DNA of 64,000 nucleotides, from assembly GCA_963726245.1 (NCBI GenBank), contig CAVSBT010000037.1, forward strand, positions 128,001 to 192,000. Direction: 5' to 3'. Positions 7,280-47,607 of this stretch are shown here, piece by piece. Position 1 is the first letter of the stretch; every line of letters starts with the position of its first letter. Below the pieces are notes generated by a model that saw only the letters and a list, made by a program, of their open reading frames with translations, was not told the DNA's origin and made no database searches. A program made the position numbers and the translations under genes. Source of the stretch: an uncultured Chloroflexia bacterium (GTDB lineage: Bacteria; Chloroflexota; Dehalococcoidia; DSTF01; JALHUB01).

Positions 7280-7357
7280 GGGTCGGCTTGCCGCCTCTAG
7301 CGCCGTAAGCTAAGCTGGTATTGGAACCTTACGCCCGTTTGTACTGGAGAGATTCCT

Positions 7358-25534: not shown

Positions 25535-26236
25535 CTAGATGCGCTCGGCGCGGACGACGAGGCGGTGGCTGTATTGGTGGATGTCTCGGTTGAACGTGCC
25601 GGTGCAGGTTATGAGGGTGACGGTGTCTTTGCTGGTGGGACCGACGATCTCGTTGATGGGGGCGTCGTCGCTGGCATAGGCGACGTTACTCACCACCAGG
25701 TACTGGTAGGAGGTGCCGTCGGCGAGGTCCACCTCGACCAGGTCGCCGGGGCCCAACTCCTTCAGGTGCCAGAAGACAGCGGGGCCGACGCTGGCGAAGT
25801 CCACGTGGCCGGAAAAGACGGCGTTGCTGCCCGCGCCCGGTCGGGCCGTGAAGTCGTACCAGCCCACATCAAAGGCCGACCTCGGCGACTGCATGGCGCC
25901 CTGGTCGTCCACTCCCAGCGTCACGACCGGCGCGTCGACCCCGATCTTGGGGATGACCAGTCGGGTCAAGGGAGCGCTGCTGGGCGGCGTCGCGGCGGGC
26001 GGCGTCTCGGCCAGTTGCCGCAGTCGCTGCTTGTCCAGGCTGAAGCCGGTCGAGGTAGTGGCGTCGCTGAGGGACGGGCCGGAAGTCGGCTCGGGGATGG
26101 AGCCGTCGGTGCCACTGCCCACGACTCCCGAGAAGGCCATCCCCAGGAGCACGAAGGCGGCCAGGATCAGGGCAACGCCGGCGCCCATGAGCCAGCGGTG
26201 CAGGTTCCGGTTACGATTGGCGTAGGAGCGACCCAT
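25535..26236 (-). CDS. class F sortase
   Basis: N-terminal TM; RLVIPKIGVDAPV, VGWY..PG..NAVFSGHVD, TLITC...RLVVRA (His/Cys/Arg triad). Confidence 0.92.
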   Translation of the reverse strand: MGRSYANRNRNLHRWLMGAGVALILAAFVLLGMAFSGVVGSGTDGSIPEPTSGPSLSDATTSTGFSLDKQRLRQLAETPPAATPPSSAPLTRLVIPKIGVDAPVVTLGVDDQGAMQSPRSAFDVGWYDFTARPGAGSNAVFSGHVDFASVGPAVFWHLKELGPGDLVEVDLADGTSYQYLVVSNVAYASDDAPINEIVGPTSKDTVTLITCTGTFNRDIHQYSHRLVVRAERI

Positions 26237-26815: not shown

Positions 26816-28437
26816 ATGCGCGTTCCAGGGCAGCAGAGAAAGTCTTACATGTGGAGGTGGACGGCAGCGCTCGCGGGGTTGGCCGTCCTTGGTTTTGCGC
26901 TGGTGATGGCGGTGGTGGTCACGCCGGCCAGCAGCGTCCAGGCTGCCACCTTTACCGTGAACAGCGTTGCTGACACCGGCGACGCCGACGCTCGCCGACG
27001 CCAAGTGCGACGTCAACCTAGCGTACATCGGGCAACCAGTGCACCCTGCGTGCAGCCATCGAGCAGGCCAACAACCGACTCCGGCGGTTGGCCAACACCA
27101 TCACCTTCAGCTCGGCACCGGCACTCAACCATCACTCCCGGTGGGCGCCTATGACGCCCTCGGTGACGACGGCCTCACCATCAATGGGGAGCGGGACCAT
27201 CGTCATCAAAGGCGCTTCCTGCCATGCTGGAGGTCGACGCCGACAACGTCACCATCTCGCACCTGATCCTGAACGGCGACGCCGCCGGCGCAAACGGCAT
27301 CGTGGTGCGCGCCACCAACGACAGCTACCCACCTCACCGGCGTCGAGGTCAGGAAGTACACCGGGACGGGCATCGTCTTCAACGGCAACAACGACGACTT
27401 CGTCCTGGATACCGTCAATGTCCACGACAACACCGGCGACCGGCATAGACCTGGCCGCTGGTTCTGACGACGGCATCATCCGCAACAGCACCATCGAGGA
27501 CAACGGCGGCGGCGGGATCTACCTGAACGACGGCTCGGGCAACCAGATCCTCAACAACACCATCCAGGATAACGGCACTGGGCCGACACGACGACAACGG
27601 CATCGAGGCCACAGACCAGAGCGAGTTGACGCATCCTGGGCAACACCCATCAGCGACAACTACGACGACGCGATCCGGATCGAAGGCGCCGGCACCGGCC
27701 TGGTCACGATCAACAACAACAGCATCCACGTCGGCCAGGGTGGCATCGACCTCGAGGACGACTGCCACTGCGACGACGTCCATATCAGCGGCGATACCGC
27801 CATCCGAGTCCAACTGCTTCAGCGGCTCCCTGACCGCCGACGTCGAGTTCTACCTGGCAGAACGAAAGCGGCGACGACATCGAGGCCCAGTACAACTACT
27901 GGGCCGGCGACACGGACCCCAAAGACAAGATATGTGCCATCGGACCAGAACAACGTCTAATTGCGACGCGAGGCGGCGGTACCGCAGACGGCGACGTCGA
28001 CTGGAGCCCGGTGGCAAGCTCGTGCGCCGGTGGCCACGCGTCACACCCACGCCTACCACCGCCACGGGTAGCATCACACCCAGCTTGACGCCCACGTGAC
28101 GGGCACGCCGCCCACGTCGACGCCCACAGTGACGGGCACGCCGCCTACATCCACGCCCACGCCCACGAGCGCCATGGAGTCGGTGACGCTGGCGGGCGGC
28201 ACCTGCAACCCGGTGGCCAGCACCTACGCGGACGGCACGCCCATCGCCACCATCGCGGCAGGCGTCTCACCGTCGGGCATCCTCATCTCCATCTGGTGGT
28301 ACAACACCGGTTCGGGAACCTGGCTCGGCTACTCGGCCCAGTTCCCCGACCAGAGCGACTTGAGCAGCGTGGACCGCCTGGAGGCGATATTCATCTGCGT
28401 CAGCTCCGCAGGCACCTGGAGCCGGCCTATAATCTGA
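26816..28437 (+). CDS. secreted CSLREA-domain / parallel beta-helix protein with Pro-Thr linker and GCNP-type C-terminal domain (multiple frameshifts)
   Basis: Signal peptide VQA|ATFTVN, CTLRAAIEQAN, N/D/G-rich repeats, C-terminus ESVTLAGGTCNPV...SRPII. Confidence 0.8.
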
Positions 28438-28768
28438 GAGGAGCGGAACGGGCGCGACTCCTGACGCGAGAAGTCAGGGATTTCCAATGGGGGCGGCCGG
28501 TGGGCCGCCCCCATCCGTTAAGGCCTGCCTGCCGGCAGGCAGGAAGATCAGCAGGGAAGGAGCAAGACCCATGCGTGTTCGAAAGCTCACCCCTGCCTCT
28601 GGATTCTTGCCCGTCCGGGCTGCGGCCTGCCGGAGTATTGACAAGGGGCACCTTCTGCACTAAAGATAGGCGCGGTGGCGGGAGCAGGCCCGCCTAAGGC
28701 GGAAAGGCTGCGAGAGACAGGACCTAGCGTAGTTCACTAGCCCGTCAGGGCAAGGAGGGCCAAGCCTC

Positions 28769-30391
28769 ATGCGCGTTCCAGGGCAGCAGAGAAAGTCTGG
28801 CACGTGGAGGTGGACGGCAGCGCTCGCGGGGGTGGCCGTCCTTGCTCTTGCGCTGGTCGCGGCGGTGGTGGTCACGCCGGCCGGCAGGGTCCAGGCCGCC
28901 ACCTTTACGGTGAACCGGACTACCGACGAATCTGACAACGACGTTACCGACGGCGTGTGTGACTGGGACCGGCGACGACTGGCAACCAGTGCACTCTCCG
29001 TGCAGCCATCGAGCAGGCCAACGAAGACTCCGGGGTCGGCAACACCATCAGCTTCAGTATCACCGGCGGCGGCACCCACACCATTACCCCGGCGGGGAGT
29101 GCCTATGACCCCATTGTTGACGACGGCCTCACTATCAACGGCGCAGCAATATCGTCATCAAAGGCGCTTTCGCCACGCTGGAGATCGACGCCGACAACGT
29201 CACCATCTCCCACCTGATCCTGAACGGCGACGCCGCGGCCGGAAACGGCATCGTGGTGGACACCCCCAACGACGCTACCCACCTCACCGGCGTCGAGGTC
29301 AAGAAGTACACCGGGACGGGCATCATCTTCAGCGGCAACAACGACGACTTCATCCTGGATGCCGTCAATGTCCATGACAACGGTACGGTCGCCGGGCTCG
29401 GCATAGTCCTGGCCGCTGGTTCTGACGACGGCATCATCCGCAACAGTACCATCGAGGACAACAGCGTCGAAGGGATCTACCTGACCGACGGCTCGGGCAA
29501 CCAGATCCTCAACAACCAATCGAGGATAACGGCAGCCCTGACCGCGGCGACGGCATCGGGGCCGACAGCCAGAGCGAGTTGAGCATCCTGGGCAACACCC
29601 TGAACGATAACTTCGACGACGCGATCCGGATCGAAGGCGCCGGGACCGGCCTGGTGACAATCAACAACAACAGCATCCGCGTCGGCCAAGGCGGCATTGA
29701 CCTCGAGGCGGGCTGCAACTGCGACGACGTCCATATCAGCGGCACCACTGCTGCCGAGTCCAACTGCTTCAGCGGCTCCCTGACCTCCGACGTCGAGTTC
29801 TACCTGGCGAACGAAAGCGGTGCTGACATCGAGGCGCAGTACAACTACTGGGCCGGCGATACCGACCCCGACGAAAAGATATGTGCCGTGGATCAGAATA
29901 ATGTCGCGGACTGTGACCACGGCGGAGGCGATCCCCCAGACGGCGACGTCGACTGGAGCCCGGTAGCTTCGAGCTGTGCCGGGGTGGCTACGGTCACGCC
30001 CACGCCTACCATCACGGGTACCATCACGCCCACCCTAACACCTACGGTGACGGGCACACCGCCCACGTCGACGCCCACCAACACGGCGACGCCAACGGGT
30101 CCCACGGCCACGCCGACAACGGGCCCCATGGAGTCGGTGACGCTGGCGGGCGGCCACTGCAACCCGGTGATCAGCACGTACGCCGATGGCACGCCCATCG
30201 CCACCATCGCCGCGGGCGTCTCACCGTCCGGCATCCTCATCTCCATCTGGTGGTTCAACCCCGGTACGGGTGACTGGCTCGGCTACTCGCCCCAGTTCCC
30301 CAGCGTGAGCGACCTTGCCAATGTGGACCGCCTGGAGGTGATCTTCATCTGCGTTAGCTCCCAGGGTAACTGGAGCCGGCCCATAATATAG
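28769..30391 (+). CDS. tandem paralog of 26816..28437 (CSLREA/beta-helix + GCNP-type CTD; frameshifts)
   Basis: High DNA similarity along the gene; ends ESVTLAGGHCNPV...SRPII. Confidence 0.82.
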
Positions 30392-30511
30392 GGGAGCGGA
30401 ACGGGCTCGACTCGTGAGCGCGAGGAGTTGGGGGCTCGCGAAACGGGGGCGGCCCACCGGCCGCCCCCGTCCATTCAGGGAGGATAACTTAGCAGGGAAG
30501 GAGCAAGACCC

Positions 30512-31939
30512 ATGCGTACGCGAAAGCTCAGCCGCGCGGCGGCAGCAATTGTCTTGAGCACCCTCGGTGCGGCGCTGCTGGTCTGGCTGGCGGTGGTTCC
30601 AGCCACCCGAGTCCAGGCGGCTACTTTCACCGTCAACGTAACCACCGACGGCGGCGACCTGGCTGCCGACGGTGTCTGCGACTCGGACGCGGCGGGCGGC
30701 AACCAGTGCAGCCTGCGCGCCGCCATCCAGGAGGCCGACGCCTCGGCGGGCCAGGACGTCATCGCCATCGGCGTCGCCGGGCCCATCGTGCTCACCGGCT
30801 CGCTACCGCAGATTACGGATAACGGCCTTGTTATCACCGGGAGCGGCCAGCAGGTCAGCATGACCGCCCCTGGCATCGCCTTCTGAGGTCAACGCTGACG
30901 GCGTCCAGATCAACAACCTGGTCATCGACGGCTCGAACGTCGGCACCACGGGCATCAGGATCAGCGTCCACGACGGATGACCTGATCCTGGACGGCGTCA
31001 CGTCCGTGGCTTCACCAGTGACGGCTTCTGAGAACACCGGTGGCGGCGGCCAGCGCAATACCATCCGCAACAGCACCTTCACCGCCAACGCGGGCGACGG
31101 CATCGGGTTCACCGGCGGCAAAGATGACGTCGTATCTCGACAGCATCATCACCAACAACGGCCAGGCGGCCGACGGCCTGGAGGTGTCAACGAGGACGGC
31201 CTGGTCATCCAGGGCAACACCTTCTCAGGCAACTTCAACGCCCAGATCGCTGATCGGCAGCATGCAGGCCGGCCAGCACGTGTCTATCATCCAGAACAGC
31301 ATCACATCGGGCTCCGACGGCATCGTCATCGGTGCGGCGGTGAACGCGACGGCCGCCATCGACATCGGCCTCTCCGTCGCCAACCGCAACGTCTTCCGCG
31401 GCGCCATTGCCGCCCCGGCCGAGCAGCACCTGAGGAACCTGAGCCCCGCCAACATCAACGCCATCTACAACGACTGGGACGCCTACAATCCGGCCGCCAT
31501 CGAGGGCGAAATCTGCCACGATGGCGACGCGGGTTGCGGGCCCGGCGTGGTCAACTTTGATCCGTTCGTCGACACGCCCTCGCCCCTGCCCACCATCACG
31601 CCGACGCCCACGGTCACCGAGACGCCCGGTACCCCCACGGTAACGCCCACGGGGACGCCTGCCGCTACCGGCACGCCGGGAGCCGTGGAGACGTTGCCCC
31701 TGATAGCAGGCTGCAACCCGCTGGCCTGGACCGGGACCGACAACACGCCCATCGCCACCATCGCCGGCGCCGTCTCGCCGGCGGGCATTCTCGTGGCACT
31801 CTGGCAGTTCAACAACGGCACCTGGCTCGGCTACTCGCCTCAGTTCCCCGAAGTCAGCGACCTTCAGCAGATGAACCGTCTGGACGTTGCCTTCGTCTGT
31901 GTGAGTGGCGCGGGCACCTTCAGCCGTCCCGTGATCTAG
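30512..31939 (+). CDS. secreted CSLREA-domain / beta-helix protein with GCNP-type CTD (frameshifts)
   Basis: ATFTVNVTTD...NQCSLRAAIQEAD; ends ETLPLIAGCNPL...SRPVI. Confidence 0.82.
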
Positions 31940-32641
31940 GAGGCACAAAGGGCAGAGCTCACCAATCACGGGTCGGGGCGGTCGTGCGACCGCCCCGACC
32001 TTGTCCGGGGGACCCCTCCAAGGGTCGCCCAAGCTGCCGCCGCGGGACAGGCGGAAATTGTTTCGCAGTTTTTGTCTTTCGGGAAGTCCCTGCACGTCCA
32101 CCCTCGCCAAGGGAGCCCGCTCACCGCTGCGTCGGGCTTGGAGCGCTTCCAGACTCGTGCAGGAATCGGCAGAGCTGCCGGGTCAGGTGCGTCGGATCTC
32201 TCACGTGTCTTGAAACACTACACACGATGTCAACCTGCCCTCACTAGAGACAGCGTTACCTTCCGCGCAGCCCAGGGCCAACAGCTACGGACGCGCTCTG
32301 CCACACCATAGACGCTCTTCCTCCACCCCAGGCTCGGCCACCTATCTCACCAACGCCCTCGGCGCCGAACCAAACTCGCCTAAGTATCCACCGACCCCCT
32401 GGCACTCTCCACCTCCCCCGCGAAGCCCTTTCCGGCCTGTGCTGTTTTCACACTACGGAAGCCCATCCTCATCATCGGAACCCCATGAACGGCATGTCCC
32501 ACCACATCTATGACAACTATGAACGGGTGGAGGGGTGACGGGCAGTACCTGCCGATGCTACAATCCTTCCGGCCCATGTATTGAGCCACACTCAGCGGCA
32601 CTATTGTGGCACGCAATCCCCGTCCAAAGGAGGTGGGCTCG

Positions 32642-33151
32642 ATGGCTCGACTCGCATTAAGCGTTATTCTTACTAGTGTGTTCCTCATGGCGGCACTCAG
32701 CATGCTTAGAAATGGCCATGTGAACCCCGTGGCCCCTGTCTATGCTTGAGGAGGCCCTCCGCCGCCGACGGCGACTTCGGCGGCCGCCACGGGTTCCGTG
32801 GCACCCACAAGTACCGTAGTACCCACACGTATCGTGGCTCCCACGGCCATACCCACGCAAGCCCCGCAGCCGACATCAGCACCGTCTCCGGGCGCAACCG
32901 AGACGGTTCCGCTCATCGCGGGGTGTAGCCCTGTGGTCTGGACAGGCATACATGGTACGCCCATCGGCACCGTTGCTAGCGCCGTCTCACCGGCCGGGAG
33001 CCTCGTCGCGCTCTGGGCGTTTGACGCTGGTCTCTGGCTAGGGTACTCGCCTCAATTCCCGGAAGTCAGCGATCTGGCGCAGATGAATCGCCTGGACGTG
33101 GTCTTCGTCTGCGTCAGCACTACCGGCACCTTCAGCCGGCCCGTGATCTAG
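32642..33151 (+). pseudogene. signal peptide + Pro/Thr linker + GCNP-type CTD with in-frame TGA at 32747-32749
   Basis: AAAGGAGG RBS, MARLALSVILTSVFLMAAL...PVYA*GGPPPPT in the same frame as ORF 32798..33151. Confidence 0.7.
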
Positions 33152-33871: not shown

Positions 33872-33872
33872 A

Positions 33873-34392
33873 TCAATACGCCCCCCCGACGAGCAAGGGC
33901 AGGTTATCCTCGAGCCGACGAACCCGCCGCTCTTGGTCTATCAACACGTAGGTCCTTCCCGACGCGACCAGCGCATGTGCCGCTCTCAGGGCTACCCTGT
34001 CATCTTGGGAATCAAGCAATTCGATGAGCTTCGTGGTAGCCAAGGTGCCTGCGTAAGCCTGAAGGTCAAAGGTTCTCTCCAAGAACTCCTCGCGGCGAGA
34101 GGCCAATTCGCGCTAAAAGTCCGGGTCTCAAGCCAGCGATGGATGGTTGATCGGTGGACCTTCACAGCGTCCGCCACGTACACGATCGGCGTACCGACGA
34201 CCATGAGGGCGAGAGCCCGGCCTTTCCTGGCATCAGGACCGTTATTGTGCGATCGGCTCGCACCTGCCCTGGCAGCGCTGGAGGAAGTGAGCTCATCGCA
34301 GACAGGGGAGTTGTTCCCCGGCGCCACAGCTTGCCCTGTCATATGCTGGCCATCCGCGCCGAGGTGGCCGCTCTTCTCTTTTGGCCGCATGC
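33873..34392 (-). CDS. HTH protein, resembling phage terminase-small-subunit-like HTH proteins (frameshifted)
   Basis: LALMVVGTPIVYVADAVKVHRSTIHRW HTH, then LIELLDSQDDRVALRAAHALV in another frame. Confidence 0.5.
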
Positions 34393-34543
34393 TTGGTGTC
34401 CCCCTCAACTCTGAAACTCCCGGTGACCTTGGCTCGGTTACCGCTTGAGGGCCCCCAAGAGCACTCAAGCTCTGTACGACTCGCCAATAGAATAATCGGC
34501 CAACCAATGAAGGTACTCGAGGGGGGTCGGCGTTGGGAATCTG

Positions 34544-34964
34544 CTATGGCAGCAACCGTGGTACCTTGAGCCGGCCACCGTTCGACGCTGTCGATAGCTG
34601 TTGCTCTACCCATGCCATCACATTCTCCGCGTCCCGGAGGTGCCGCTCAGCATCTCCCGGGTCTATCTCAGCCGCAGCCCCGGGCCCAACCAGGATATCC
34701 GGATACCTGGACACCACATAGGCTCTCGTTAGACTCATCAGACCGCCCGTGAGGTCCAGCTCGACGGGCTAGCCACGACCAGAATCGTGTGTCCGTGGCG
34801 GCTGCGTGGCCTCGCGCTCCACCAGCAGCGCTTTGATGGCCTTCTCGGCCACCTGCTGTGCGAAGGAACGACGTGGCCGACCAGCGCTCGCCTGCCAACG
34901 TCACACGCGCGGTCACGAGGTCCTCCTCTGCCTGCCGCCACCATCGCTCCGTCTCTATCCGCAT
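34544..34964 (-). CDS. HEPN-domain protein (frameshifted)
   Basis: WWRQAEEDL..AR, AQQVAEKAIKALL, PRTHD, YVVSRYPD; TATAAT ~20 nt upstream. Confidence 0.8.
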
Positions 34965-35178
34965 GACTCTTACACTAGGTAGATTATACCAGCGCGCGCC
35001 CCAACGCACAGAGCGGATCAGCCTGGCGACGCCCGCCAATCCCGTGTTCATGCAGGCAGCCGGGCACGGATGGGAGAATCCGATCGCCAGCTCAGACACA
35101 GCCGCAGGGTCGGATCGCCCGGGTTCCTCAAGGGGAAAAGGGCGGTAGGCGTCCCTGAGTTCCGAAAGCTTGATGGCT

Positions 35179-35421
35179 TTACGTGGACTTGGCGAGCCGC
35201 AGCCTCAAAGCCGCGGCATGCTTGCAGACGCCACGGTAGGTGAAACCCGGGCAAGTGCAGGTGATGTGGCCAAAGGGGCTCGCGAAGAGCTCAAAGTAGG
35301 CGTCGGGCTCCACGCTCCGAGACCGAGCCAGGTAGCGGTCCGTGCCCGCCAGCTTCACCACCCGCACTCGCTCCGTGCGCGCCCGCTCCAGGGCCCTCAG
35401 CTCACGCTCCTCCGTGTCCAT
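35179..35421 (-). CDS. SWIM zinc-finger protein
   Basis: ITCTCPGFTYRGVCKHAAA (CxC-xn-CxH). Confidence 0.8.
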   Translation of the reverse strand: MDTEERELRALERARTERVRVVKLAGTDRYLARSRSVEPDAYFELFASPFGHITCTCPGFTYRGVCKHAAALRLRLAKST

Positions 35422-35518
35422 CACCGTTCCTCCCGTGGATGCAGCAAGGGTGTGACGGATCCTCGAGCCTGGGCTGATGCGGAAGAGCCAGCTCCTCGGG
35501 GATACCGCGGGCTGCCAC

Positions 35519-35779
35519 GTAAGCACTTGTGATGTTGGCCCGCACGAAGGGCCGCTCCAAGACCAGCATCTGGCTCAGCCGTGTCAGGCAGTTGGCCCCC
35601 ACGAAGTAGTCCCTCCGCGCCTCCATGTCCCGCAGCCCGTATAGGTAGTTCGGCAAGAGCCGACCCGCAGGCGTCACAGGTGGTGTCGCAGGGAAAGCGC
35701 AGCATCCCCCGAAAGCGCCGTAGCCTCTTCCCCTGTGCAAAGGCCTGCAGCCGGTCTCCTCATAGGTCATCGTCGTCAT
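35519..35779 (-). CDS. hypothetical protein (frameshifted, Cys-containing)
   Basis: GAGGAGG RBS before MTTMTYEETGC; coding signal split across frames. Confidence 0.4.
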
Positions 35780-35794
35780 GTTCTGCCTCCTCGG

Positions 35795-36660
35795 ATGATG
35801 TGATGGGGATATCGCAGCGGGAGCAGTCCACCGGCCGGACACGATCCGCCCCAGCTTCATGCAGTAGGTTTGCAGCCAGCGGCAGCGCGGCTCTCGCTCC
35901 GCCGGCGGTGCCTCGAAGCCCTCCCTCTGCGCCCCCGCCATGCCGGACCTCCTCTCGAAAGTCGGCAGATGGAGTAAGACGGATTCTCCGCCTTGCGATC
36001 CTCAGCGTAGGCCAGCCAGAACTGCGGGGCGTTAGTCTGGGAGGCTACGATGTACCAGGTGACCTCCTGAAGGGTGGAATTTTGCAATTGATTGCAAAAT
36101 TGGCCGTCCTCCCCCGAGAAAGAAGACCTCCCACACCTTCGCCAGGTTGTAGGCCTGGCGCCAGCCGATGCCAAAGGTGCGGCCCATGGCCTCCCAGGCG
36201 CGGTCGCCGTAGACGCTGCGCCGCTTGGCCTCCCAGAGGATGGCCGCCTGGGCCTTCCAGGCGCGCTGGTCGAGGTCACGAAAGTAGGAGAAAGAGGTCG
36301 ACGAGCTGGTCGTCGCGTGAGGTATGGTATCCTCTGGGCGAGGGCGTCGAGGCGGGTCTCCAGAAGGTTGAGCTCGTGGAAGTACTCGGAGGGGCGGAAG
36401 CCGGGGTTGAAGAGGCGGCGCGCGACGACCTTGCCTGTCGCCGACTTGGGCGACCACGAGGTGGCGGTCGGTGCGCTCCAGACGCCAGCGCTGTTCGGTG
36501 ATCTGGGTATGGCAGGAGCGGCAGAGGACAGCCTTGTTCGCGGGAGCCTCGATCTCGGGACGGCGAGAGCCGCCCATGCGGCGAGGTTCGATGTGATGGA
36601 CCTCCGCGTTGCGAGAGGTGCCGCAGATCTCGCAACGGCTGTCCGGCCGCGACAAACATA
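35795..36660 (-). CDS. HNH endonuclease-domain protein (frameshifted)
   Basis: CEICG....EVHHIEPRRMGG...PANKAVLCRSCH. Confidence 0.72.
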
Positions 36661-36710
36661 GCGAGTATCCGTCCGTAATCCGCCTCTAATCATACATTAA
36701 GTGGACAGCC

Positions 36711-36929
36711 GTGTCAACACCTAGGTTGACGCCTCGGGTAGCGCTGAAAGAGTGGCGGCGGCTGCGTGCCCTGTCACAAGAGGAACTGGCAAGGGCAGCG
36801 GGCATTCAACGCAGCACCATCGTGGACATCGAGAGCGGAAAGCGGTCTCCTCGGCCGAGCACGCTGAGAAGACTCGCGAAGGCGCTGAACATCAAGCCCG
36901 AGGGGCTCTTTGCGGATCCATTCGCGTAG
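36711..36929 (+). CDS. XRE-family HTH transcriptional regulator
   Basis: LSQEELARAAGIQRSTIVDIESGKRSPRPSTLRRLAKAL. Confidence 0.9.
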   Translation: MSTPRLTPRVALKEWRRLRALSQEELARAAGIQRSTIVDIESGKRSPRPSTLRRLAKALNIKPEGLFADPFA

Positions 36930-37745
36930 CAGAGGGGGGTGCCGGGCCACGTTTGCAGGTGCGAGGTCTGCGCTTCCGGCTGAATCCCGCTCCTGCCAAC
37001 GGAAGGCGCCCCGGCGTTCTGCCGAGGCCATCCATACTCGCCGGAAGGTAGGATCGGGCTTAGCCGCCTCTTCTAGCATGGGGCCGTACATGCGCTCAGC
37101 ACGCACGAAGCGCCGGTCGCTGTACTCATGGCCGTCCCAGGAACCGCCGCAGGTGACAAGGGTGACGGCATCATGACCGTTGATGCCGAAAACCTGGTCC
37201 CAGTTGATCTCATCCACCGGAGACTCCTGGTTCCAGACGACGGCATAGTAGTAGACGGTCTGGTCCGCCAGCCGCACTTCCACCTCGTCACCGGGCTTCA
37301 GCTGGTCCAGGTCCCAGAACACAGCCGGGCCGTAGTGGATATAGTCCACGTGGCCGGATAAGATGGCATTCCCTCCAAACCCAACTCGGTGCTCCTCCCC
37401 GGGATGGTACTCAGACATATCGTACACGGCGACAACTTCCGGGCCGCTGGGCATGGGCATGACCCCGTCGGTGTCCACGGTGTGCGGCTCCAGGGCAGCG
37501 TTAACGTCTATCTTGGGGATCAACAGCCTTTCAGGAGCAGCCCCGCTTGGCGGAACGGGGCTTTCCGTGGGCCAGGGAACAGCTGTCGCCGTCGGTTCAG
37601 TTACCAGCTGCCGCTGCGGCTTCTCTCCTCCTCGAAAGACACCCTGCGTTGAGACCACAACCAGGGCCGCACCCAGCAGCGCCGAAGCCAAAGGGGCCGC
37701 CAACAGCGGCAGTCTCCTCGACAGCGTTAGCTTCCATATCCGCAT
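36774..37745 (-). CDS. class F sortase (second copy; C-terminal ~90 aa extension doubtful)
   Basis: N-terminal TM, RLLIPKIDV, NAILSGHVDY, TLVTCGG...RRFVRAER. Confidence 0.9.
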   Translation of the reverse strand: MRIWKLTLSRRLPLLAAPLASALLGAALVVVSTQGVFRGGEKPQRQLVTEPTATAVPWPTESPVPPSGAAPERLLIPKIDVNAALEPHTVDTDGVMPMPSGPEVVAVYDMSEYHPGEEHRVGFGGNAILSGHVDYIHYGPAVFWDLDQLKPGDEVEVRLADQTVYYYAVVWNQESPVDEINWDQVFGINGHDAVTLVTCGGSWDGHEYSDRRFVRAERMYGPMLEEAAKPDPTFRRVWMASAERRGAFRWQERDSAGSADLAPANVARHPPLLREWIRKEPLGLDVQRLRESSQRARPRRPLSALDVHDGAALNARCPCQFLL

Positions 37746-37900
37746 GCAGTCTCCCCTGTTCCGCCTTTGTCATAGACCCGCCACCAGCCTTCCGACCACT
37801 CAGCATATCACAGCCCGCCCTTTAGCGTCGTCGCCCACACGCGCATCTTGCCAGAGATAGAACGAGCCTCCCCAGCTTCTCCGGGGAGGCTCGCCTAATC

Positions 37901-38527
37901 TCAGACCCTCTCTGCCTTAGGCAGAGACGCCTCTCCTAGTGGCGTATACCGACGGTAGGCCGACACACCCGCCGTGCCCAGCAGTAGCAGTCCAAGCCCA
38001 GCGGCCATGTAGACCCACCAGGCCGTCCCGCTGCCACCGTCCAGGTAACCGCCCGTGCCCGTTATGACCCTAGGCGTTGGCGTTACCGGCGCCGGCGTGG
38101 AGGGCGGCGCCACCGTGGGCTGCACGGCCTGGCCGCCCAGGTCCAGCGACGTGAACTTGCCGCTGCTCCAGGTAGCGCTACCCGCCGGGTTGCCTCCGAC
38201 CATGAAGCTTACCGAGGCGCCCTCGGTGCCACACCCGGCCGTCTGTCCGCTTGCCACCACGTCCAGGACGTACGACGAGTCCGCCTTCACGGTCGTCTGG
38301 CCACAGACGGTATCGCCGATCGTGGCGCTGACCTGAGTTCCTGCCGCGGCCGCCGACCCGCCCTGGGTTACCTTGCCGAAGAAGCGGTTCGGCGGCGTCG
38401 GCGGCTGGGCGCTGACGCTCGCCACCAACAGCGACGAGATCACCGCCACAACTACGCCTGCCAGCACGCCCTTTTTCAGGGTCTTCCAGTCAAGAATCAT
38501 AGTATTGAATCCCTCCGTTGATTCCAT
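37901..38527 (-). CDS. small secreted protein with putative sortase sorting signal (VITGTGG-TM-RR)
   Basis: Signal peptide VSA|QPPTPPNRFFG, two Cys, PT linker, VITGTGG + hydrophobic helix + RR; directly upstream of the sortase. Confidence 0.75.
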   Translation of the reverse strand: MESTEGFNTMILDWKTLKKGVLAGVVVAVISSLLVASVSAQPPTPPNRFFGKVTQGGSAAAAGTQVSATIGDTVCGQTTVKADSSYVLDVVASGQTAGCGTEGASVSFMVGGNPAGSATWSSGKFTSLDLGGQAVQPTVAPPSTPAPVTPTPRVITGTGGYLDGGSGTAWWVYMAAGLGLLLLGTAGVSAYRRYTPLGEASLPKAERV

Positions 38528-38562
38528 TCCCCGGAGCTACCCCTTAGCGGAAGCCCCTGACT

Positions 38563-40457
38563 CTAGATCTTCGGCCGGCTAATGGTGCCGGGCGCATTCA
38601 TGCAAACGAAGATCGCGTCCAACTGGTTGACAGTCGTCAGGTCGCTGGCCTCCGGAGCCGCAGCCGAGAACCCCTGCCAGGTGCCCGACTCGGGGTCGAA
38701 CACCCAGACGGCGTCCAGCGCTTCGGGCGGCGCTACTCCCTTCGCCACCGTTTCGATTGGGGTGGCGTCGGGCCATGTCGCGGCCAGCGGGTTGCAGCCC
38801 GCCACCAGCTTCACCGATTCGCTCTCTGAAGGTCTCCAGCTTGACCACGCCAACGGCGACCACGTTGGGATGGCGGTCAAGGCGGCAGGTCAGCGTGAGC
38901 GTCCCTCCCTCCATCACCGCCTTCCCTGTGGGCACGATCTTTACCATAACATGCCCGGCAGGTCGCCAGCCAGGCCGCCCGTGGTGCCCGTCTGGGGCCA
39001 GATTATGAGGCCGCTTTGCACCGGATCCAGCGAGCACGAGACAGTCTCGTTGGCCATGGGCCGGAAGGACGAGTCGAGCGCCACAAACTTGAACTCGCCC
39101 CCTTCGGGACCTATGGCACCTCCAGGGGGCAGCTCCAGATACGTCCCCAGCAGCGGCTCACCGACGAAGGTGGCGTTGATGGTGCGCGGCGGAGACTGAC
39201 GCCGCCGCCCTGCTGAGCGGTGATGGTGGCCGTGCCGACGTCACCGTTGCCCAGCAGGAAGGTCGTGACGACGCCGTTGCGCCAGCCGTCGGCGTCACAG
39301 CCGCCCTTGAACGTAATCCCGCCATTGGGCTACCAGTCGGCCTTTCGCGAAAGCCACTGGAACCAGTAGTACAGGGCGTCCACGTCGAAGACGTTCACCG
39401 ACTTGCCCTGGCCCACAGTCAGTGGCCACGATGGGTGGGAAAAGATACTCCAGCGCCTGCCGCTAGATTGCTCGCGCCATTCTTGAGCGCCTGAGCGACG
39501 GGGCTCATAGAGAAAATCCCGAGATCGGTCTCAAAGCTGACGTAGTCGTCGAAGAGCGCTGCCGTGTTCCCGCCGCACCAGACATCCGGCAAGTCCAGGT
39601 CTGGGAGGCCCGTGCGGGATTGATGTCGAGCTGCTGGTGTTGCTCCCGTAGCCCTCAGCCGGCGGCCCGACGTCACCGTAGACGCTCGCCGTAGAGACCG
39701 TCATACATGTCGTCCAGGCCCTGCGCGCCGTCCTGATCCGGGTCAATCAGCGCCTGCTCGGTACTCGGCACAAGGGGAGCGCGACCGGTAACGTCGCAGT
39801 GGTAGGCCACGAGCAAAGGCTGCTCCTGGGCAGCCGTGCCGAGCGGCCCTGTGGGCCCAAAGGCCAGTATCGTGTCCACCACGACGATCTGCACCGAGCG
39901 CGCGTCGCCCGTCTCGTCCGTAGCCGTGACCAGGACGATCTCGTTCACGCCCTTTGTGTTGCCCAGCGTGGCCGCCGCGGCGTTAACGCGCACCGTCACC
40001 ACGCCCACAGCGGCATCCATGTCGGCGCCGCTGTTGTCCGACACCGTCAGCGTGTGATCGCCGTCGGCGTCGAAGGTGAGCGCCGGCGGCCCGCTGTTCT
40101 GCGGGTACAGCCTCGTCCATCTCGAAGGTGATGGCGCCGTATGGCTCCGGGTGCGTTCGCGGTTCATACAGCGTGCTCCCATCCACGTCAGGGCAGGGGC
40201 CAGTGTCGACCGGGAGCGCCTGGCGCGAAGCAGAACACTGCCACGATGCCCGGCTGCCCGGTGCCGATGATCGCCGGGATAGCCTGGTTGTTCAGTCCCG
40301 GCACAGCCGGTGCCGCCGATGGCAGCGCCGCAATACCGCCCGGGGCGCCCAGGCTGGCCTCTGCGCGCTGGGTGTGTCCCGCCGGGTGCAGGATTCCCAG
40401 CACCACCATGAGCGCCGCCACCAGGGCGATCACTCCTACTTTTCTGACATTACCCAT
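38563..40457 (-). CDS. large secreted S-layer-like protein with GCNP-type CTD (many frameshifts)
   Basis: Paralog of 41359..43243 (LGAPGGIAALPSAAPAVPGL, DVWCGGNT, DGWRNGVVTT); ends ESVKLVAGCNPL...SRPKI. Confidence 0.72.
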
Positions 40458-40693
40458 CAATGGCGCCTCCTTTCAGGACACGAAAAGCGCCGGACCACTC
40501 TTGGCCCATGACTAGACGCTTGCGGCCGGCAGGCCAGTCCGGACCTTCCGTTTCCCTGCGCCGCCGTCATCGGACATCTGGCGAGCCTTCCCGGGTAGGC
40601 TGACAGCACCGCCGGGAAGGCTCGCCCCGATTTCGTGGCCGCGCCTCCGCCCACAGGCGACCATGGTCGCCTCGAGCGGAGCCGCCTGCCGAT

Positions 40694-41257
40694 TTAGCGC
40701 GCGTTCCGGCGATAGGTCGCCACGCCCGCCGTGCCCAGCAGCAGCAGACCCAGGCCAGCAGCCATGTAGACCCACCAGGCCGTCCCGCTGCCACCGTCCA
40801 GGTAACCGCCTGTGCCCGTTATGACCTTGGGCGTTGGCGTTACCGGCTTCGGCGTCGCGGGCGCTGCCGTAGGCGGTGCAGCCTGTCCGGCGAGGTCCAT
40901 AGACGTGAACTTGCCGCTGCTCCAGGTGCCAGTTCCCGCCGGGTTGCCTCCCACCGTGAAGCTCACCGAAGCACCCTCGGTGCCGCACCCGGCCGTCTGT
41001 CCGCTGGACACCACGTCCAGGACATACGACGAGTCCGATTTCACGGTCGTCTGGCCACAGACGTTGCCGCCAATGTCGGCGCTGACGTTCGTGCCCGCCG
41101 GGGCCGCCGAGCCACTCAGGGTTACCTTGCCGAAGAAGCGGTTCGGCGGCGTCGGCGGCTGGGCACTCACGCTCGCCACCATCATGGACGAGATAAGCGC
41201 CACTACCGCGGCTACTAGCGCGCCCCTTCTCAGGGCCTTCCAGCTAATGATCATCAC
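40694..41257 (-). CDS. paralog of 37901..38527, putative sortase substrate
   Basis: QPPTPPNRFFGKV...KVITGTGGYLDGGSGTAWWVYMAAGLGLLLLGTAGVATYRR. Confidence 0.78.
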   Translation of the reverse strand: MMIISWKALRRGALVAAVVALISSMMVASVSAQPPTPPNRFFGKVTLSGSAAPAGTNVSADIGGNVCGQTTVKSDSSYVLDVVSSGQTAGCGTEGASVSFTVGGNPAGTGTWSSGKFTSMDLAGQAAPPTAAPATPKPVTPTPKVITGTGGYLDGGSGTAWWVYMAAGLGLLLLGTAGVATYRRNAR

Positions 41258-41358
41258 TCACGGTCCCTCTCGTCTGATTCCTTTCTCGGAGCGTCAGCTC
41301 CGTTGAAGGCTGCAGGGTGTGGGGACCGCTGCCGGCCCCCACACCCTGCCACTGAGTC

Positions 41359-43243
41359 CTAAATCACCGGCCGCCCGATTGTGGCAGCCGCGTTCACGCA
41401 AACGAAGATGGCGTCCAGCCGGTCCACGGTAGCCAGGTCGCTGACCCCCGCGGGAGCGGTAGGCGAGAAGCCCTGCCACATGCCCGTCGCCGGGTCGAAC
41501 TTCCAGATGGCTTCCAGGGCCTCTGCCGGCGCCACCGCGCCAGACACCGTCGCGATCGCTGTCGCGTCGGGCCACGTTGCGGCCAGCGGGTTACAGCCCT
41601 CAACCAGCGCCACCGACTCCAGGTTGGGAGTCTGGCTCAGACTGACCTTGTCGCTCGCCGAGACGCTGCGGTCGCGGTCCAGCGTGCAGGTGATGGTCAA
41701 CTCCTCGGCTGCGACCACGGACTTGCCCGTCGGTATCAGCTTGAAGGTGACCTCACCCGGGTCGTGTCCGAGGTGACTAGCGCCTGTGGTCGCGGTCTGG
41801 TTGAGGATCGCCAGGGCGCCGCCCGTGGGATCCACCGTGCAGGTCACGGCCTCATTCCCCACCGGCCGGCCGTCCTGGTCCACCACGGCCACCGTGAAGT
41901 TGTCGCCGGTTGTGCCGATGATCGCCGGCGCCGTGATGAAGAGGGAGAGCGCGGCCTCGCCCTCGAAGGTCACGTTGATCGTGCGAGCCGGGCTGACGCC
42001 GCCGCCCTGCTGGGCGCTGATCGTGGCGACGCCGACGTTGCCGTTGCCCAGGAGCTCGGTGGTGACGACGCCGTTGCGCCAGCCGTCGATGTCACAGCCG
42101 CCCTGGACACCCACGCCGAATTGACTGAAGTCCCACTCCGACCACACGAGGAGGGCATCGATGTCGAAGGTGTCGATTTCCTGACCCTCGCCGCAGGCGG
42201 CGTCAATCATGGGCGGGAAGAACCAGTCTAGGAAGTTGGCCAGGTTGGCCGAGGTCTGCTGAACGATTACGGCGGCAGGGTCAACCGAGAAGAGGCCCTT
42301 GTCCGTCTGGAAGTCGACGAAGTCATCGAACAGCGCACTCGTGTTACCGCCACACCAGACGTCCGGAATCGCCACCGGAGGTATCGTGCCGTTGGGGGCG
42401 TCTCTGCCCAGCAGAGTGTTGCTGCCCCAGCCGGCGCCCGGGCCGCCGCCAAATTGCCAGTTGGGCCCGTAGAGGCCGTCGTACATGTCGTTCAGCCCCT
42501 GCTGCTGATCGTCGTTCCCTGCGCTACCCTCGGCAATCCACTGAGCAGGTGTTGGGCACGAGCGTGCTCCGCCCGAGCACGTCACAGTGGTAGGAGACGT
42601 AGACCGGCTGATCCTGGGAGGCGGTGCTGATCTGACCGCTGGGCCCCCAGGCCAGCATGGTGTCCACGATCACGATGTTGACCGTGCGCACGTCGCCCGT
42701 GTCGTCCGTGGCGGTGACCTTGACGATCTCGTTAACGCCCTTGGTGTTGCCCTGCGTGGCCGCGGCGGCATTCACGCCTGTCGCCACCACGCCGATGGCC
42801 GAGTCCATGTCGGCGCCGCTGTTGTCCGTCACCACCAGGGTGTCAGACCCGCTCGCAGCCCAGGTGGCCATGGGCACCGCCGCCGCTGGTGGGGTAGACC
42901 TGGGTCAGCTCCAGGGTAATGGGGCCCAATAGTCGGTGTCCACGACTTCCCCCCGGACAATCCCCTGCCACGTAGGGCAGGTCTCGATGTCCCGCAAGGT
43001 CCGGCGCCGTGCGCAGAAGACGGCCACGATGGCCATCTGGCCGGTGCCGATGATGGCCGGGAGGCCCTGGTTGGCGAGGCCGGGGACGGCCGGAGCCGCC
43101 GAGGGCAACGCCGCGATGCCGCCCGGCGATCCCAGGTCGGCCTGGGCCACCGGCGTCTGTGCCGTTGGCCGGAGCGCCGCCAGGACGACGAGGAGAGTCG
43201 CCATAACGGCCAGTATTCCCAGTTTCTTTATGCTAATGCTCAA
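41359..43243 (-). CDS. large secreted S-layer-like protein with GCNP-type CTD (frameshifts ~42560-42950)
   Basis: AAAGGAGGAG RBS, signal peptide AQA|DLG, acidic beta-rich body, ends ESVALVEGCNPL...GRPVI. Confidence 0.78.
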
Positions 43244-43875
43244 GGGTTGCTCCTCCTTTGGGCGGATTTGCGGCTGCGGGCTTGCCGCTCAGAGACCTCG
43301 GGCGCGAACGTGGGCCGGACCGACCTCTCCCGGTCGGCAGGCCCATCTCCTCCTTCACCATAGGTCACGGCTCGCCGCCACCGCATTCCCTTGCTTTCTC
43401 CTTATCTTTCACAATCACTGACTTGACGAGTCTGCTAGCTACAGAGTGACCGACCCCCACCCCTGATCCACCGGAGCCGGCCTGCTCCGACGGCCTCGTT
43501 CCGGGTGGAAGCGAGGCCACTTCTGAAGTTAGCTACATCGCATCCCCCCTTCCTGCTCCCCGCCATCCTTGCCAGGGAACCGGCGGGCTCCATGTTCCGA
43601 AAATTCTCAGCGCGCCAACGGGCAGACGGGTCAAAACACAATTCCCCTACCCCCGCCAGCTCGCAACGTTCCGTCTCTAAGACAGCAGCGCTCTAGCGGG
43701 CGCGCACACACAATTTGGCAACCGCAAAAGCGCCGTTGCCACAACCCTTAAAACGCCGGGCCGGAGGAAAAGGTTAACGCCGGGTGGCGGCTGTTAACTC
43801 TGGGCGTAGGTGACGCGTTCTACATAATACAAGCGTTGGGTACGGGCCGCTGGACGGCCGGGGACAAAAGCGATT

Positions 43876-44523
43876 ATGCTATGCACAGTATGGGCACACC
43901 GGCTCTTCCCCCTCAGGAGGCCTCCGAGCGCCGATTCTGCCTTCTCCGACCTGCCGACGGACGGACAGGAGAGGGACATGGTCCAGCGCGCCCGCTCCGG
44001 GGACCAGCCGGCCCTGGGCGAGATCTACGACCTCTATTTCCCCCGCATCTACCGCTACGTCCTGGCCCGCACCGGCAACACAGCCGAGGCGGAGGACGTC
44101 ACGGAGGACGTCTTCATCAAGGTCCTGGGCGCCATCGGCGGCTTCGAGTGGCGAGAGGCGCCTTTCGCAGCCTGGATCTTCCGCATCGCCCACAACCAGC
44201 TCATCAGCCACAGTCGCAAGAACGGCGTCCGTCGCCAGGATACTCCCCTGGCAGACACCATCGCTGACCCGGCTCCGGACCCGCTCATCCGCGTCGAAAA
44301 CAGGCTTTACTTCGAGCAGATCCTCGATGTCGCGCGTGTCCTCCCTCAGGCCCAGCGCGAAGTGCTCTGGCTGCGCTTCGCCGTCGGCCTCTCCATTTGT
44401 GACACGGCACGCACCCTGGGGAAACAAGAAAACAACGTTAAGGTCCTCCAGCACAAGGCGATCGCCAGGCTCCAGAAGCTCCTGGGCCAGTCTGAGCTGG
44501 AAAGGCCGAATATATTAGGATAG
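43876..44523 (+). CDS. ECF sigma-70 factor
   Basis: IYRYV...AEDVTEDVF...FAAWIFRIAHN; QREVLWLRF...NVKVLQHKAIARL. Confidence 0.92.
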   Translation: MLCTVWAHRLFPLRRPPSADSAFSDLPTDGQERDMVQRARSGDQPALGEIYDLYFPRIYRYVLARTGNTAEAEDVTEDVFIKVLGAIGGFEWREAPFAAWIFRIAHNQLISHSRKNGVRRQDTPLADTIADPAPDPLIRVENRLYFEQILDVARVLPQAQREVLWLRFAVGLSICDTARTLGKQENNVKVLQHKAIARLQKLLGQSELERPNILG

Positions 44524-44533: not shown

Positions 44534-45967
44534 ATGAAGCAGCGCTTCGAAGACATACTGGCGGAGTGCCTGGAGGCGGCCAACACGGGCCGGCTCACCA
44601 TCGATGAGTGCCTGGCCCTCTATCCCCATCTGCGCGACCGCCTGGAGCCGCTTCTACGCTTCGGGCACCAGTTGAGCCAGGCCTCTTTCCCGGAACCCGA
44701 CTCAACGTTCCGCGAAGCCGCGCGTGAGCGCTTCCTCGCCGCTGCCCAGGCCGGTGCCGTGGCCCCACAGCAGCGGCGGAGGCTGCTGCCCGCGCTGCAC
44801 ATGCCCCGCCGCTGGAGCTGGCGCCCGCTGTTCTCCGCTCAAATGGGCCGCCCGGTCGGCTGGCGGAGGGCCGCTCTCACCATGGCTGCGGCGCTGCTCC
44901 TTGGCTGCATCGGCTTCTCATCTTTCGCCGTGGTCAGCGCCGGCGACAGCCTGCCGGGCGACTGGCAGTACCCTGTCAAGCGGCTCACCGAGCGCGCCCG
45001 CCTCACCTTCACCTTCGGCGAGGACGCCCGCCGCGACTACCGCATCAGCCTCGCGGAGGAGCGACTGCACGAGGTACAGGGCCTGGCCTCCCGGCAAGAC
45101 AGAATCAGCGAATCCACCCTCGCGCAGCTCGTGGACGCCACTGAGCCTTTGGTCAAGGCTCTGGAGCCCGACTCCGTCCCCACCGACCAGATCCAGCGCA
45201 TCACAGACCTGACGGCCGAGCAGACCGCCACCCTTGACCGCGTGGGACCGCTGGTCGAGAGCAAGGCGGCCGACGAGCTGGCGGAGGCCAGGGTCGTCTC
45301 CAGCGAGGGCTACGATAAGGCTGTGGTGGCGCTGGCCGCAGCACGCGCTGAGGGGCCTGAGGAAACCCCGGGCCTCACGACTCCAGCAACCGGCACCCCT
45401 TCGGCCGGCGCCGGTACCGCATCACCAACGCCGGGCTCAAGCCCCGGCGCGGCAGCCAGCCCTTCGCCCACGCCGGCCGCCGGCGCCAGCGCTTCCGCCA
45501 CGCCCACGCCGCAGCCCACGCCTGTTCCGGGCGAGGCCACACCCGCGGCGGCTGAGCCCACTCCGCTACCGGGCGAGCCCACGCCCGCAGCGCCGGAGCC
45601 CACCGCGACACCGTCCCCTCCAGAACGGCCCGTGACTTTCCTGCCCGACGACAACACCGCCGGCCTGAAGTGGGACCTGCTCACAATCGGCGCCTTCTCG
45701 ATGAGGGCGCCCGCCGACGGGAGCGCAGATTGGGCGGTGTCCACGCTGAACGGCGCCAGCGGCAATCGGATCCTGGTCGGACACTTCCAGAGCGGCGGCT
45801 TTGACGCCAGCATCACGGTGCAAGTCAACACGGGACAGGCCTCCATCCGCGTGCTCGCCGAAGGCAAGATTCAGGAAGTGAGCGCCGAGGACGTGCGCAC
45901 TCTGGTGCCTGGCCCTGTCGCCGACGTCATCCTCCACGTGTTAGAGTCCATCCACGCCGGATCATAG
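44534..45967 (+). CDS. DUF5667-type membrane protein, probable anti-sigma factor
   Basis: ILAECLE...ECLALYP N-terminus, TM, SLPGDWQYPVKRLTE...AEERLHE, Pro/Thr-rich linker. Confidence 0.8.
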   Translation: MKQRFEDILAECLEAANTGRLTIDECLALYPHLRDRLEPLLRFGHQLSQASFPEPDSTFREAARERFLAAAQAGAVAPQQRRRLLPALHMPRRWSWRPLFSAQMGRPVGWRRAALTMAAALLLGCIGFSSFAVVSAGDSLPGDWQYPVKRLTERARLTFTFGEDARRDYRISLAEERLHEVQGLASRQDRISESTLAQLVDATEPLVKALEPDSVPTDQIQRITDLTAEQTATLDRVGPLVESKAADELAEARVVSSEGYDKAVVALAAARAEGPEETPGLTTPATGTPSAGAGTASPTPGSSPGAAASPSPTPAAGASASATPTPQPTPVPGEATPAAAEPTPLPGEPTPAAPEPTATPSPPERPVTFLPDDNTAGLKWDLLTIGAFSMRAPADGSADWAVSTLNGASGNRILVGHFQSGGFDASITVQVNTGQASIRVLAEGKIQEVSAEDVRTLVPGPVADVILHVLESIHAGS

Positions 45968-46626: not shown

Positions 46627-47607
46627 TCAGACGATTGGCCGCACAAAGGCGCCGGGGCCGGTCACACAGACGAAGACCACATCCAGGAAGTTCTTCGTCG
46701 TCAGGTCGCTGGCCTCGGGATAGGCCGGCGAGTAACCGAGCCAGCCAGTGGCCTCAAGCTCCCACAGCGCCTCCAGGTTGCCTGACGGACCCACCGCCCC
46801 GGCAATAGTCCCGATGGGCGTGGCGTCGGCATAGGTAGTGGCCACAGGGTTGCAGCCTGCAGCGAGGTCTACAGCCTCAAATCCCGGCGGCAGCGGCGTG
46901 GGCGTGGCGCCCGGGACCACCGGCGTCGGTCCCGGGCCTCCCGGCGTCGGCGAAGCGGCTGGCGGCGGCGTTGCCGTCGGCCCAGGCGTGACGGGCGTGG
47001 AAGTGGGGCCCGGCCCGACGCCTTCGCAGTCTATGGTGGCGTCGGCCAGGGTGGTAGGGAGGCTGACGCCGCCCGCCCCCAGCGTGATGGTGAATGTCCC
47101 GCCTTGAGGAGAGTCCCCCGAGTTTACCAGGTGCAGCGTAGCCGGGCCTGCGGCCATGCACTGGAAAGTGGCTATCACCGTCTCGCCGGTGGCGTTCGTG
47201 GTGCCCGAAGCACTAGCGGACCCACCCAAGAGCCGGGTACCCACCGGGGTCACCACGGCGTTTGCGGTAGTGCCGCCCAGCCCGGTGTAGTGCCAGCTCT
47301 CGAGTGTCGTGTCGCCGTTGATGTCGTCCGTGGGGATGAACGTCAGGCCCGCGTGGTCCACCACCAGGTTATAGCCTGCCCATGGCGTGCTCGCGTCGGT
47401 AATGTCAAAGCTGACCTGGAAGGGCACGCCCACCGGCTGCGTCGCGGTGGCCTGGATGCCGGGCGCGTTGACGTCGGCGTTTACAGCCATAGCGTTGTCC
47501 GGGGCCGCCACTACCGCCGTTCGGCCGGCTAGAACACCGCCGACGGTCAGCGCTGCAACCAGGACCACCCACAGTCCTCTCTGCACCATGTCAACCCTCT
47601 CTTTCAC
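46627..47607 (-). CDS. secreted cohesin-like domain + PT linker + GCNP-type CTD
   Basis: NAMAVNAD...WAGYNL...FQC...ADATIDC; ends EAVDLAAGCNPV...VRPIV. Confidence 0.78.
   Translation of the reverse strand: MKERVDMVQRGLWVVLVAALTVGGVLAGRTAVVAAPDNAMAVNADVNAPGIQATATQPVGVPFQVSFDITDASTPWAGYNLVVDHAGLTFIPTDDINGDTTLESWHYTGLGGTTANAVVTPVGTRLLGGSASASGTTNATGETVIATFQCMAAGPATLHLVNSGDSPQGGTFTITLGAGGVSLPTTLADATIDCEGVGPGPTSTPVTPGPTATPPPAASPTPGGPGPTPVVPGATPTPLPPGFEAVDLAAGCNPVATTYADATPIGTIAGAVGPSGNLEALWELEATGWLGYSPAYPEASDLTTKNFLDVVFVCVTGPGAFVRPIV

Follow-up and report, generated by a model that had tools for sequence, protein, structure and literature searches.

A conserved sortase-linked gene cassette of a Dehalococcoidia-class bacterium and its possible role in the surface display of proteins with a two-cysteine C-terminal domain

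How do uncultured Chloroflexota, about whose surface building and decoration almost nothing is known, keep large secreted proteins on the cell? This question is raised by a five-gene cassette in a 64,000-nucleotide stretch of an uncultured bacterium of the class Dehalococcoidia (assembly GCA_963726245.1, contig CAVSBT010000037.1, positions 128,001 to 192,000; the whole stretch is hereinafter the window). The contig belongs to a metagenome-assembled genome (MAG) of 2.68 Mb in 46 contigs, which is 83% complete and has 6.3% contamination. On the minus strand of the window, genes for two large acidic proteins, A1 and A2, alternate with genes for two small proteins, B1 and B2, and are followed by a sortase gene (Table 1). 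The A proteins end in a two-cysteine C-terminal domain (CTD), and a first-pass annotation, made without database searches, proposed that the B domain, anchored by the sortase, captures this CTD. The cassette is real, conserved and so far uncharacterised, and we consider it somewhat probable that it is a cell-surface display module in which B serves as a wall-anchored receptor for the CTD. Among the papers that searches on sortases and on cohesin-dockerin systems in Chloroflexota and Dehalococcoidia brought up, no title or abstract opening deals with this system.

The gene order A1, B1, A2, B2, sortase was borne out, and B1 (187 amino acids), B2 (208 amino acids) and the sortase are open reading frames (ORFs) without interruption. 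B1 and B2, which had been described as near-identical two-cysteine domains with a sorting tail, are indeed 81% identical, with two cysteines and the same tail in each, and they are the only two genes in the 2.68-Mb genome that B1 matches. The two A-B units are 73-84% identical at the DNA level; the identities do not separate a cognate pairing of B1 with A1 and of B2 with A2.

The same layout, with a divergent extracytoplasmic function (ECF) sigma/anti-sigma pair followed by (A-B)n and then by a sortase, is present in 37 metagenome loci, including the variants A-B-A-B-A-B, A-B-B and A-B-A-A-B, in which each complete A is one unbroken match. These loci contain 42 B genes, of which 35 have room for an upstream neighbour: 26 stand behind a CTD-ending gene, nine behind another B and none behind any other gene. 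Downstream of B, there is an A in 10 cases, a sortase in 10, another B in nine and nothing in one, with no room in eight. The cassette layout is also found in two other families of the class. In G380, a genome of the same order but of another family, an intact A (551 amino acids), a B and a sortase lie in a row, and beyond the cassette there are two convergent CTD genes and a second sortase. In family f34, a CTD-ending protein of 617 amino acids is followed by a B homolog with an LPRTG motif and then by a sortase in one genome (G065), and CTD-ending proteins of 837 and 777 amino acids are followed by B in two more (G160 and G177, respectively; LPRTG is present in G160); the large proteins of these three genomes matched the query via the CTD only.

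In the structural model of B, residues 38-125 form a beta sandwich with predicted local distance difference test (pLDDT) values above 90. It belongs to the transthyretin / carboxypeptidase-regulatory fold type (best Foldseek E-value 3.8e-4; best VIA Z 8.0, root-mean-square deviation (rmsd) 2.7, 77 aligned residues), although this Z lies in the range of common arrangements and the matches are those of a generic sandwich. Sequence searches found no relative of B in Pfam, NCBIfam or PDB; its orthologs are 67-88% identical among the 120 clusters listed. At the N-terminus, a hydrophobic helix (residues 6-32) precedes VSA-QPP, as read from the model and the translation rather than from a signal-peptide predictor. 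The C-terminal tail, [VI][VI]TGTGGYLD..GSGTAWW followed by a helix and YRR, is kept in 114 orthologs; in B itself, the hydrophobic stretch is a helix at residues 161-186 and the basic end reads YRRNAR. Distant B homologs across the class have LPRTG, or else PPVAG, PPVTG, PPTTG or APRTG, at the aligned place, and behind the motif they too have a hydrophobic segment and a basic C-terminus. The genome encodes penicillin-binding proteins, Mur ligases and FtsW/RodA, that is, genes of peptidoglycan synthesis. We propose that B would be exported and its signal peptide cut, such that the mature chain begins with QPPTPP; the adjacent sortase would cut the [VI][VI]TG-TGG signal, ahead of the hydrophobic helix and YRR, and link B to peptidoglycan, so that a small transthyretin-like sandwich would be left at the tip of a Pro/Thr stalk. 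A candidate family for the tail, GVDTG_CTERM (NF058571), was rejected: the matches score 16.6-19.8 bits against a cut-off of 29, and sub-threshold matches occur also in 11 of the 14 control genomes.

The CTD, 86 residues with two cysteines, occurs in 16 places in the genome, eight of them in the window. Its family includes 807 cluster representatives at E ≤ 0.001, and in 127 of the best 150 of these the domain lies at most 8 residues from the C-terminus. The proteins that carry it are diverse, including beta-helix/NosD and cohesin proteins and, by Atlas structure, clusters with CARDB, CAP and M10 protease domains; the Atlas neighbors are mostly Chloroflexota. Like B, the CTD has no relative by sequence in Pfam, NCBIfam or PDB, so the cassette adds two families that these databases do not cover. 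Relatives of the CTD that lack cysteines and end in GWN[FL]IGWLGP were also seen, one at the end of a B-domain protein in G012 (L075, G012:C58) and another, in G221 (L078, G221:C74), at the end of a protein encoded beside a B-domain match. Within the genome itself, two contigs have near-identical copies of a CTD gene with a Mur ligase gene behind it (G000:C6:21411-22584 and G000:C24:3894-5206), perhaps a sign that the bin contains strain duplicates.

Do the two domains bind each other? The first-pass annotation had suggested a complex prediction of B with the CTD, and such a prediction, with B residues 32-128, CTD residues 546-636 and, for each, an alignment made in this analysis, yields an interface. 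The interaction prediction score from aligned errors (ipSAE) is 0.76, 0.68 and 0.75 in three runs (median 0.75), compared with 0.01 for the best of three controls; the mark that these runs pass is reached by 58 of 80 solved complexes and by two of 110 mismatched pairs, and it holds only roughly when one's own alignments are used. The runs have at least 96% of their contacts in common, and pLDDT of the partners is at least 87. On the B side, the predicted interface consists of the mature N-terminus (residues 33-38), R40, F42 and residues 79, 81, 87 and 114-117; on the CTD side, it includes C559, P561, W589, W598, G600, P606, F622 and C624, which are invariant across all eight CTDs of the window. 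In addition, the B domain and the CTD are combined in one chain, in either order, in nine of the best 150 CTD representatives. The proteins L057 and L058 consist of a signal peptide, a CTD-like domain joined directly to a B domain, and an anchor tail.

The complex score, the gene order in 35 of 35 cases, the recurrence of the trio of CTD gene, B and sortase in other families and the nine fusions among 150 thus give the proposed capture of the CTD of A by sortase-anchored B support in silico, the binding itself being a prediction. Docking of the CTD on B appears to be the best-supported mechanism, and we hold it with moderate confidence. The tip of B would bind non-covalently the CTDs of A1 and A2 and probably also those of the other 14 CTD-ending frames, including beta-helix proteins and cohesin carriers. 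B would be the wall-anchored receptor, the CTD would be the plug, and A would be the exposed cargo, acidic and variable, which might serve as a coat protein. If the pair binds, this would explain what keeps secreted proteins, hundreds of them otherwise unnamed, on the cell.

Several observations weigh against this mechanism. The complex score is the model's own confidence, and the language model may owe the pairing to natural fusion proteins in its training, in which case the score would tell that the domains pack together and not that the split ones bind. The co-occurrence of the two domains that had been expected was found in part, the distributions being nested and not matched: among 401 genomes of the class (a tally that includes the unpublished genome G244), a B-type domain is present in 163 and the CTD in 42, and sortases are present in 202. 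Of the 42 CTD genomes, 37 also have B, and all 12 genomes with CTD matches at E ≤ 1e-14 have B, 11 of the 12 with a sortase as well. In family f28, 10 of 11 genomes have B but none of the 11 has a sortase. Small B-like anchors that share the N-terminal motif lie among housekeeping genes in family f20, where CTD matches are weak at best; therefore, the tip motif need not exist for the CTD. The remaining four genomes in the family of the MAG gave no CTD match, the genome has two B genes for 16 CTDs, and the sorting motif of B, [VI][VI]TGTGG, is not LPXTG.

One alternative is that there is no binding between B and the CTD. The CTD would then fix its carriers to a wall polymer, to peptidoglycan or to itself, or would be an export or quality-control tag, and B would be an independent small protein of the wall, merely co-transcribed. 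The fourfold wider spread of the B-type domain, which in family f20 stands alone, and the generic sandwich fold of B, with its best Z of 8.0, speak for this alternative; it could also draw on the resemblance of the CTD fold to the sorting tails of the type IX secretion system (T9SS) (template modelling (TM) score 0.65-0.72, a lead only) and on the two mismatched pairs of 110 that pass the complex mark. We nevertheless regard it as rather unlikely, given the contrast between the complex score and its controls, the invariant residues at the predicted interface, the strict gene order and the recurrence of fusions in both orders.

The tandem B-B genes before the sortase, of which there are nine cases, bring up another possibility, namely, that B is a pilin-like subunit which the sortase joins head to tail into a fibre on which A sits. 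The operon has a sortase of its own, and the B fold weakly matches CnaB2 and Gram-positive pilin domains (Z about 6). However, A lacks a sorting signal through which a sortase could attach it, B consists of just one domain of 90 residues, and no YPKN-type pilin motif was noticed in B by eye, with no tool search made for it. The fibre accordingly seems very improbable.

Should the docking mechanism hold, B and the two-cysteine CTD might constitute a new docking pair, unrelated to cohesin-dockerin, in which the mature N-terminus of a sortase-fixed stalk would grip a tail domain common to hundreds of protein families and which in a Chloroflexota clade would serve as a general wall mounting for a coat protein, enzymes and cohesin carriers, with B+CTD fusions as adaptors that extend the chain; we advance this broader claim tentatively, being inclined slightly to doubt it. 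If true, a small disulfide-stabilised docking pair would join the few known ones and could become a tool for protein assembly.

A functional parallel is with the sortase-anchored scaffoldins with cohesin-dockerin docking, such as ScaE of Ruminococcus flavefaciens. In both cases, a small wall-linked receptor on a stalk holds, here by proposal, diverse secreted proteins via one shared plug domain, and the window itself encodes a cohesin+CTD protein, through which dockerin-bearing enzymes could be linked to the B anchor. The parts are different: the receptor here is a transthyretin-like sandwich, and the plug is a two-cysteine beta domain rather than a Ca-binding helix pair. The Cohesin and Dockerin profiles (PF00963 and PF00404) do not match B or the CTD at E ≤ 5.

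Surface layers (S-layers) provide two further comparisons. In the Sulfolobus SlaA/SlaB S-layer (PDB 8qox), a small anchored stalk protein likewise carries a large exposed partner, and B superposes on SlaB with Z 7.5 (rmsd 3.2, 85 aligned residues), a Z in the range of common arrangements; here, by contrast, the proposed anchor is a bacterial sortase signal. SbsB and SbsC, which are anchored through S-layer homology (SLH) domains, resemble A in being acidic, in consisting of several sandwich domains and in having an anchoring module at one end, and they occupy the top Foldseek rows for A, but the TM scores are just 0.14-0.16, and the proposed anchor of A is a protein, not a wall polymer. Profile searches found no SLH domain.

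The T9SS C-terminal sorting domain, Por_Secre_tail, is similar to the CTD as a beta domain of 80-90 residues at the C-terminus of diverse cargo, which is where the Atlas TM scores given above belong, and differs in that the sortase signal of the cassette is on the partner and not on the cargo. The CTD has no Pfam match to Por_Secre_tail. Chloroflexota are generally held to be monoderms. Finally, residues 432-548 of A form, in the model, an intimin-type immunoglobulin domain that matches the Big_1 domain of intimin/invasin (Z 11.3, rmsd 2.1, 91 aligned residues, 24% identity), and PF02369 is recorded for four A homologs (P0038, P0079, P0086 and P0087). This likeness covers one domain of A only, and there is no outer-membrane barrel.

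The A proteins are the variable component of the cassette. Their orthologs, with frames restored, have a mature mass of approximately 60 kDa and an isoelectric point of about 4.05 and are just 33-70% identical. The model of the ortholog P0002 has a pLDDT of 88, and whole-chain Foldseek searches with A, which did not reach the CTD, return generic multi-sandwich proteins with S-layer SbsB on top (TM ≤ 0.21). The first-pass suggestion that A may be the main S-layer subunit thus has this fold likeness to go on and stays a conjecture. Contigs from an RNA library (X17) lie on 27 of the 30 bins; such contigs show neither transcription nor abundance. A separate motif, GGIA[AE]LP, is nearly invariant just behind the signal peptide of A (residues 40-51, at about 43126-43091 on the minus strand). 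It recurs in other surface proteins (L056, L057, L058 and G000:C4:10515-11672), where a hydrophobic helix and an RRRWLR end follow some 30 residues later, and may represent another type of sorting signal, perhaps one that the second sortase recognises.

Are A1 and A2 functional genes? They had been described as paralogous acidic proteins of about 620 amino acids; paralogy and acidity stood, whereas neither is a single ORF. By tblastn and frame-aware alignment against two intact orthologs (P0002, 636 amino acids, and P0045, 618 amino acids, each recorded on a contig of 14,694 bp), the frame of A1 shifts near 43011, 42881 and 42547, and that of A2 near 40223, 40114, 39674, 39654, 39620, 39460, 39414, 39196, 38948 and 38827, besides an in-frame TAG. 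The residues between the breaks are conserved and the frame-restored A1 and A2 are close to the intact orthologs, P0002 being 85% identical to A1 across a 408-residue piece. Short contigs from other public runs contain frame-restoring indels at four of the 14 sites (38826/7, 38943, 39198 and 42879/82), the contigs of relatives being uninformative at most of the 14. These contigs also skip 130-135 bases between 42877 and 43013, probably a variable segment.

Assembly error, rather than gene decay, is the likeliest cause of these breaks, because the orthologs elsewhere are intact and dnaE of the same window is frame-split as well. The dnaE gene (13099-16849, minus strand) breaks near 15,525, with PHP and the NTPase profile positions 1-155 in one frame and NTPase 153-260, finger, HHH and OB in another; dnaE is an essential gene. 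Three beta-helix CTD genes (26.8-31.9 kb) also shift frame relative to intact G380 proteins. Against plain random error stands the density of indels, which in A1 and A2 is about 3.7 per kb, too high for such error and far above that in neighboring ORFs of 721-915 codons; it suggests a poor consensus over strain-variable genes. The alternative is that A1 and A2 are true pseudogenes and the strain is without its main surface cargo. One could cite for this the 14 disruptions in 3.8 kb, as against none in the roughly 1.9 kb of B1, B2 and the sortase, the location of all breaks outside homopolymer runs and the failure to find source reads, no public run holding more than 0.23 of the words in a search for the source run. 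Decay appears improbable to us, considering the split dnaE, the conserved codons between the breaks and the relatives that are in frame at four sites. With assembly error, the gene calls for surface proteins of this MAG would be truncated by indels. A split was noted in yet another gene of the window, that for a gltD-like oxidoreductase (7301-8805, plus strand), where Pyr_redox_2 is spread over two overlapping frames (profile positions 2-119 and 142-291), likely an assembly indel.

The sortase of the cassette matches Pfam Sortase (PF04203) with 55.7 bits, above the gathering cut-off of 26.6, and its translation contains SGHVD, TLVTCGG and RRFVRAE, whose His, Cys (of TLxTC) and Arg are presumably the catalytic residues. 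The assignment to class F in the first-pass annotation is not established: the protein scores 88.4 bits against a cut-off of 166 for NF033748, class F being simply the best-scoring class, and the same holds for the second sortase of the island, which is likewise below the cut-off. The cassette sortase is 65% identical to the G380 sortase, and its ORF runs about 90 codons past the ends of its relatives. The genome encodes three sortases.

Table 1. Features of the cassette and of the surrounding island, in window coordinates
Feature	Position	Strand	Remarks
A1, secreted acidic protein of several sandwich domains with the two-Cys CTD at its end	41359..43243	-	Broken by 3 frame shifts
CTD of A1, 86 amino acids, GCNP...FVCV	41362..41619	-	Predicted contact with B
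B1: putative signal peptide, transthyretin-like sandwich from QPPTPPNRFFG, Pro/Thr linker, VITGTGG, hydrophobic helix, YRR tail	40694..41257	-	
A2, A1 paralog	38563..40457	-	10 frame shifts and in-frame TAG at 39330
CTD of A2	38566..38820	-	
B2, B1 paralog (81% identical)	37901..38527	-	
Cassette sortase	36774..37745	-	Catalytic domain about 37071-37634; 3' end of ORF extended compared with relatives
5' leader of A1, conserved; invariant AAGGAGGAG and TTG start	43244..43573	-	
Divergent ECF-type sigma factor	43876..44523	+	Pfam Sigma70_r2 and r4; syntenic in 11 metagenome loci
Putative anti-sigma factor (DUF5667)	44534..45967	+	Pfam; syntenic
CTD-bearing protein, 326 amino acids, no Pfam family	46627..47607	-	
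Cohesin domain and CTD, 333 amino acids	48267..49268	-	Pfam Cohesin 31 bits, cut-off 24.1
Four more CTD-ending genes	26816..33148	+	CTDs end at 28434, 30388, 31936 and 33148; three are beta-helix proteins, and those are frame-broken
Second sortase of the island	25535..26236	-	Pfam Sortase 89.8 bits; NCBIfam class F 120.5 bits, cut-off 166

Upstream of the cassette, the strong ribosome-binding site and the long intergenic region that had been reported for A1 are both present: AAGGAGGAG lies six bases before the TTG start at 43243, and 632 bp separate A1 from the divergent sigma factor gene. The 330-nucleotide leader, the ribosome-binding site and the TTG start are all kept across the related loci. 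The sigma factor has Sigma70 regions 2 and 4 only, as is characteristic of the ECF type (PF04542, 57.8 bits; PF04545, 31.5 bits), and it is probably this divergent sigma/anti-sigma pair that controls the operon. A 100-nucleotide hairpin is predicted in the leader (43244-43573, minus strand), with compensatory change at just 7 of 86 pairs; with almost no covariation (term 0.71), the RNA structure is too weak for a claim. A scan of the 64-kb window with Rfam found two tRNAs and nothing further.

The block that separates the sortase from the convergent CTD genes (33200-36770) has an HNH-like ORF (36032-36655, minus strand), a SWIM-like ORF (35179-35526, minus strand) and an XRE-type helix-turn-helix ORF (36711-36929, plus strand), names that come from reading the translations alone. 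Because the block is without counterpart in the related loci, it suggests an inserted mobile piece. Farther away, a single 721-codon ORF (20962-23127, minus strand) combines GHMP (homoserine-kinase-like), aspartokinase and ACT domains.

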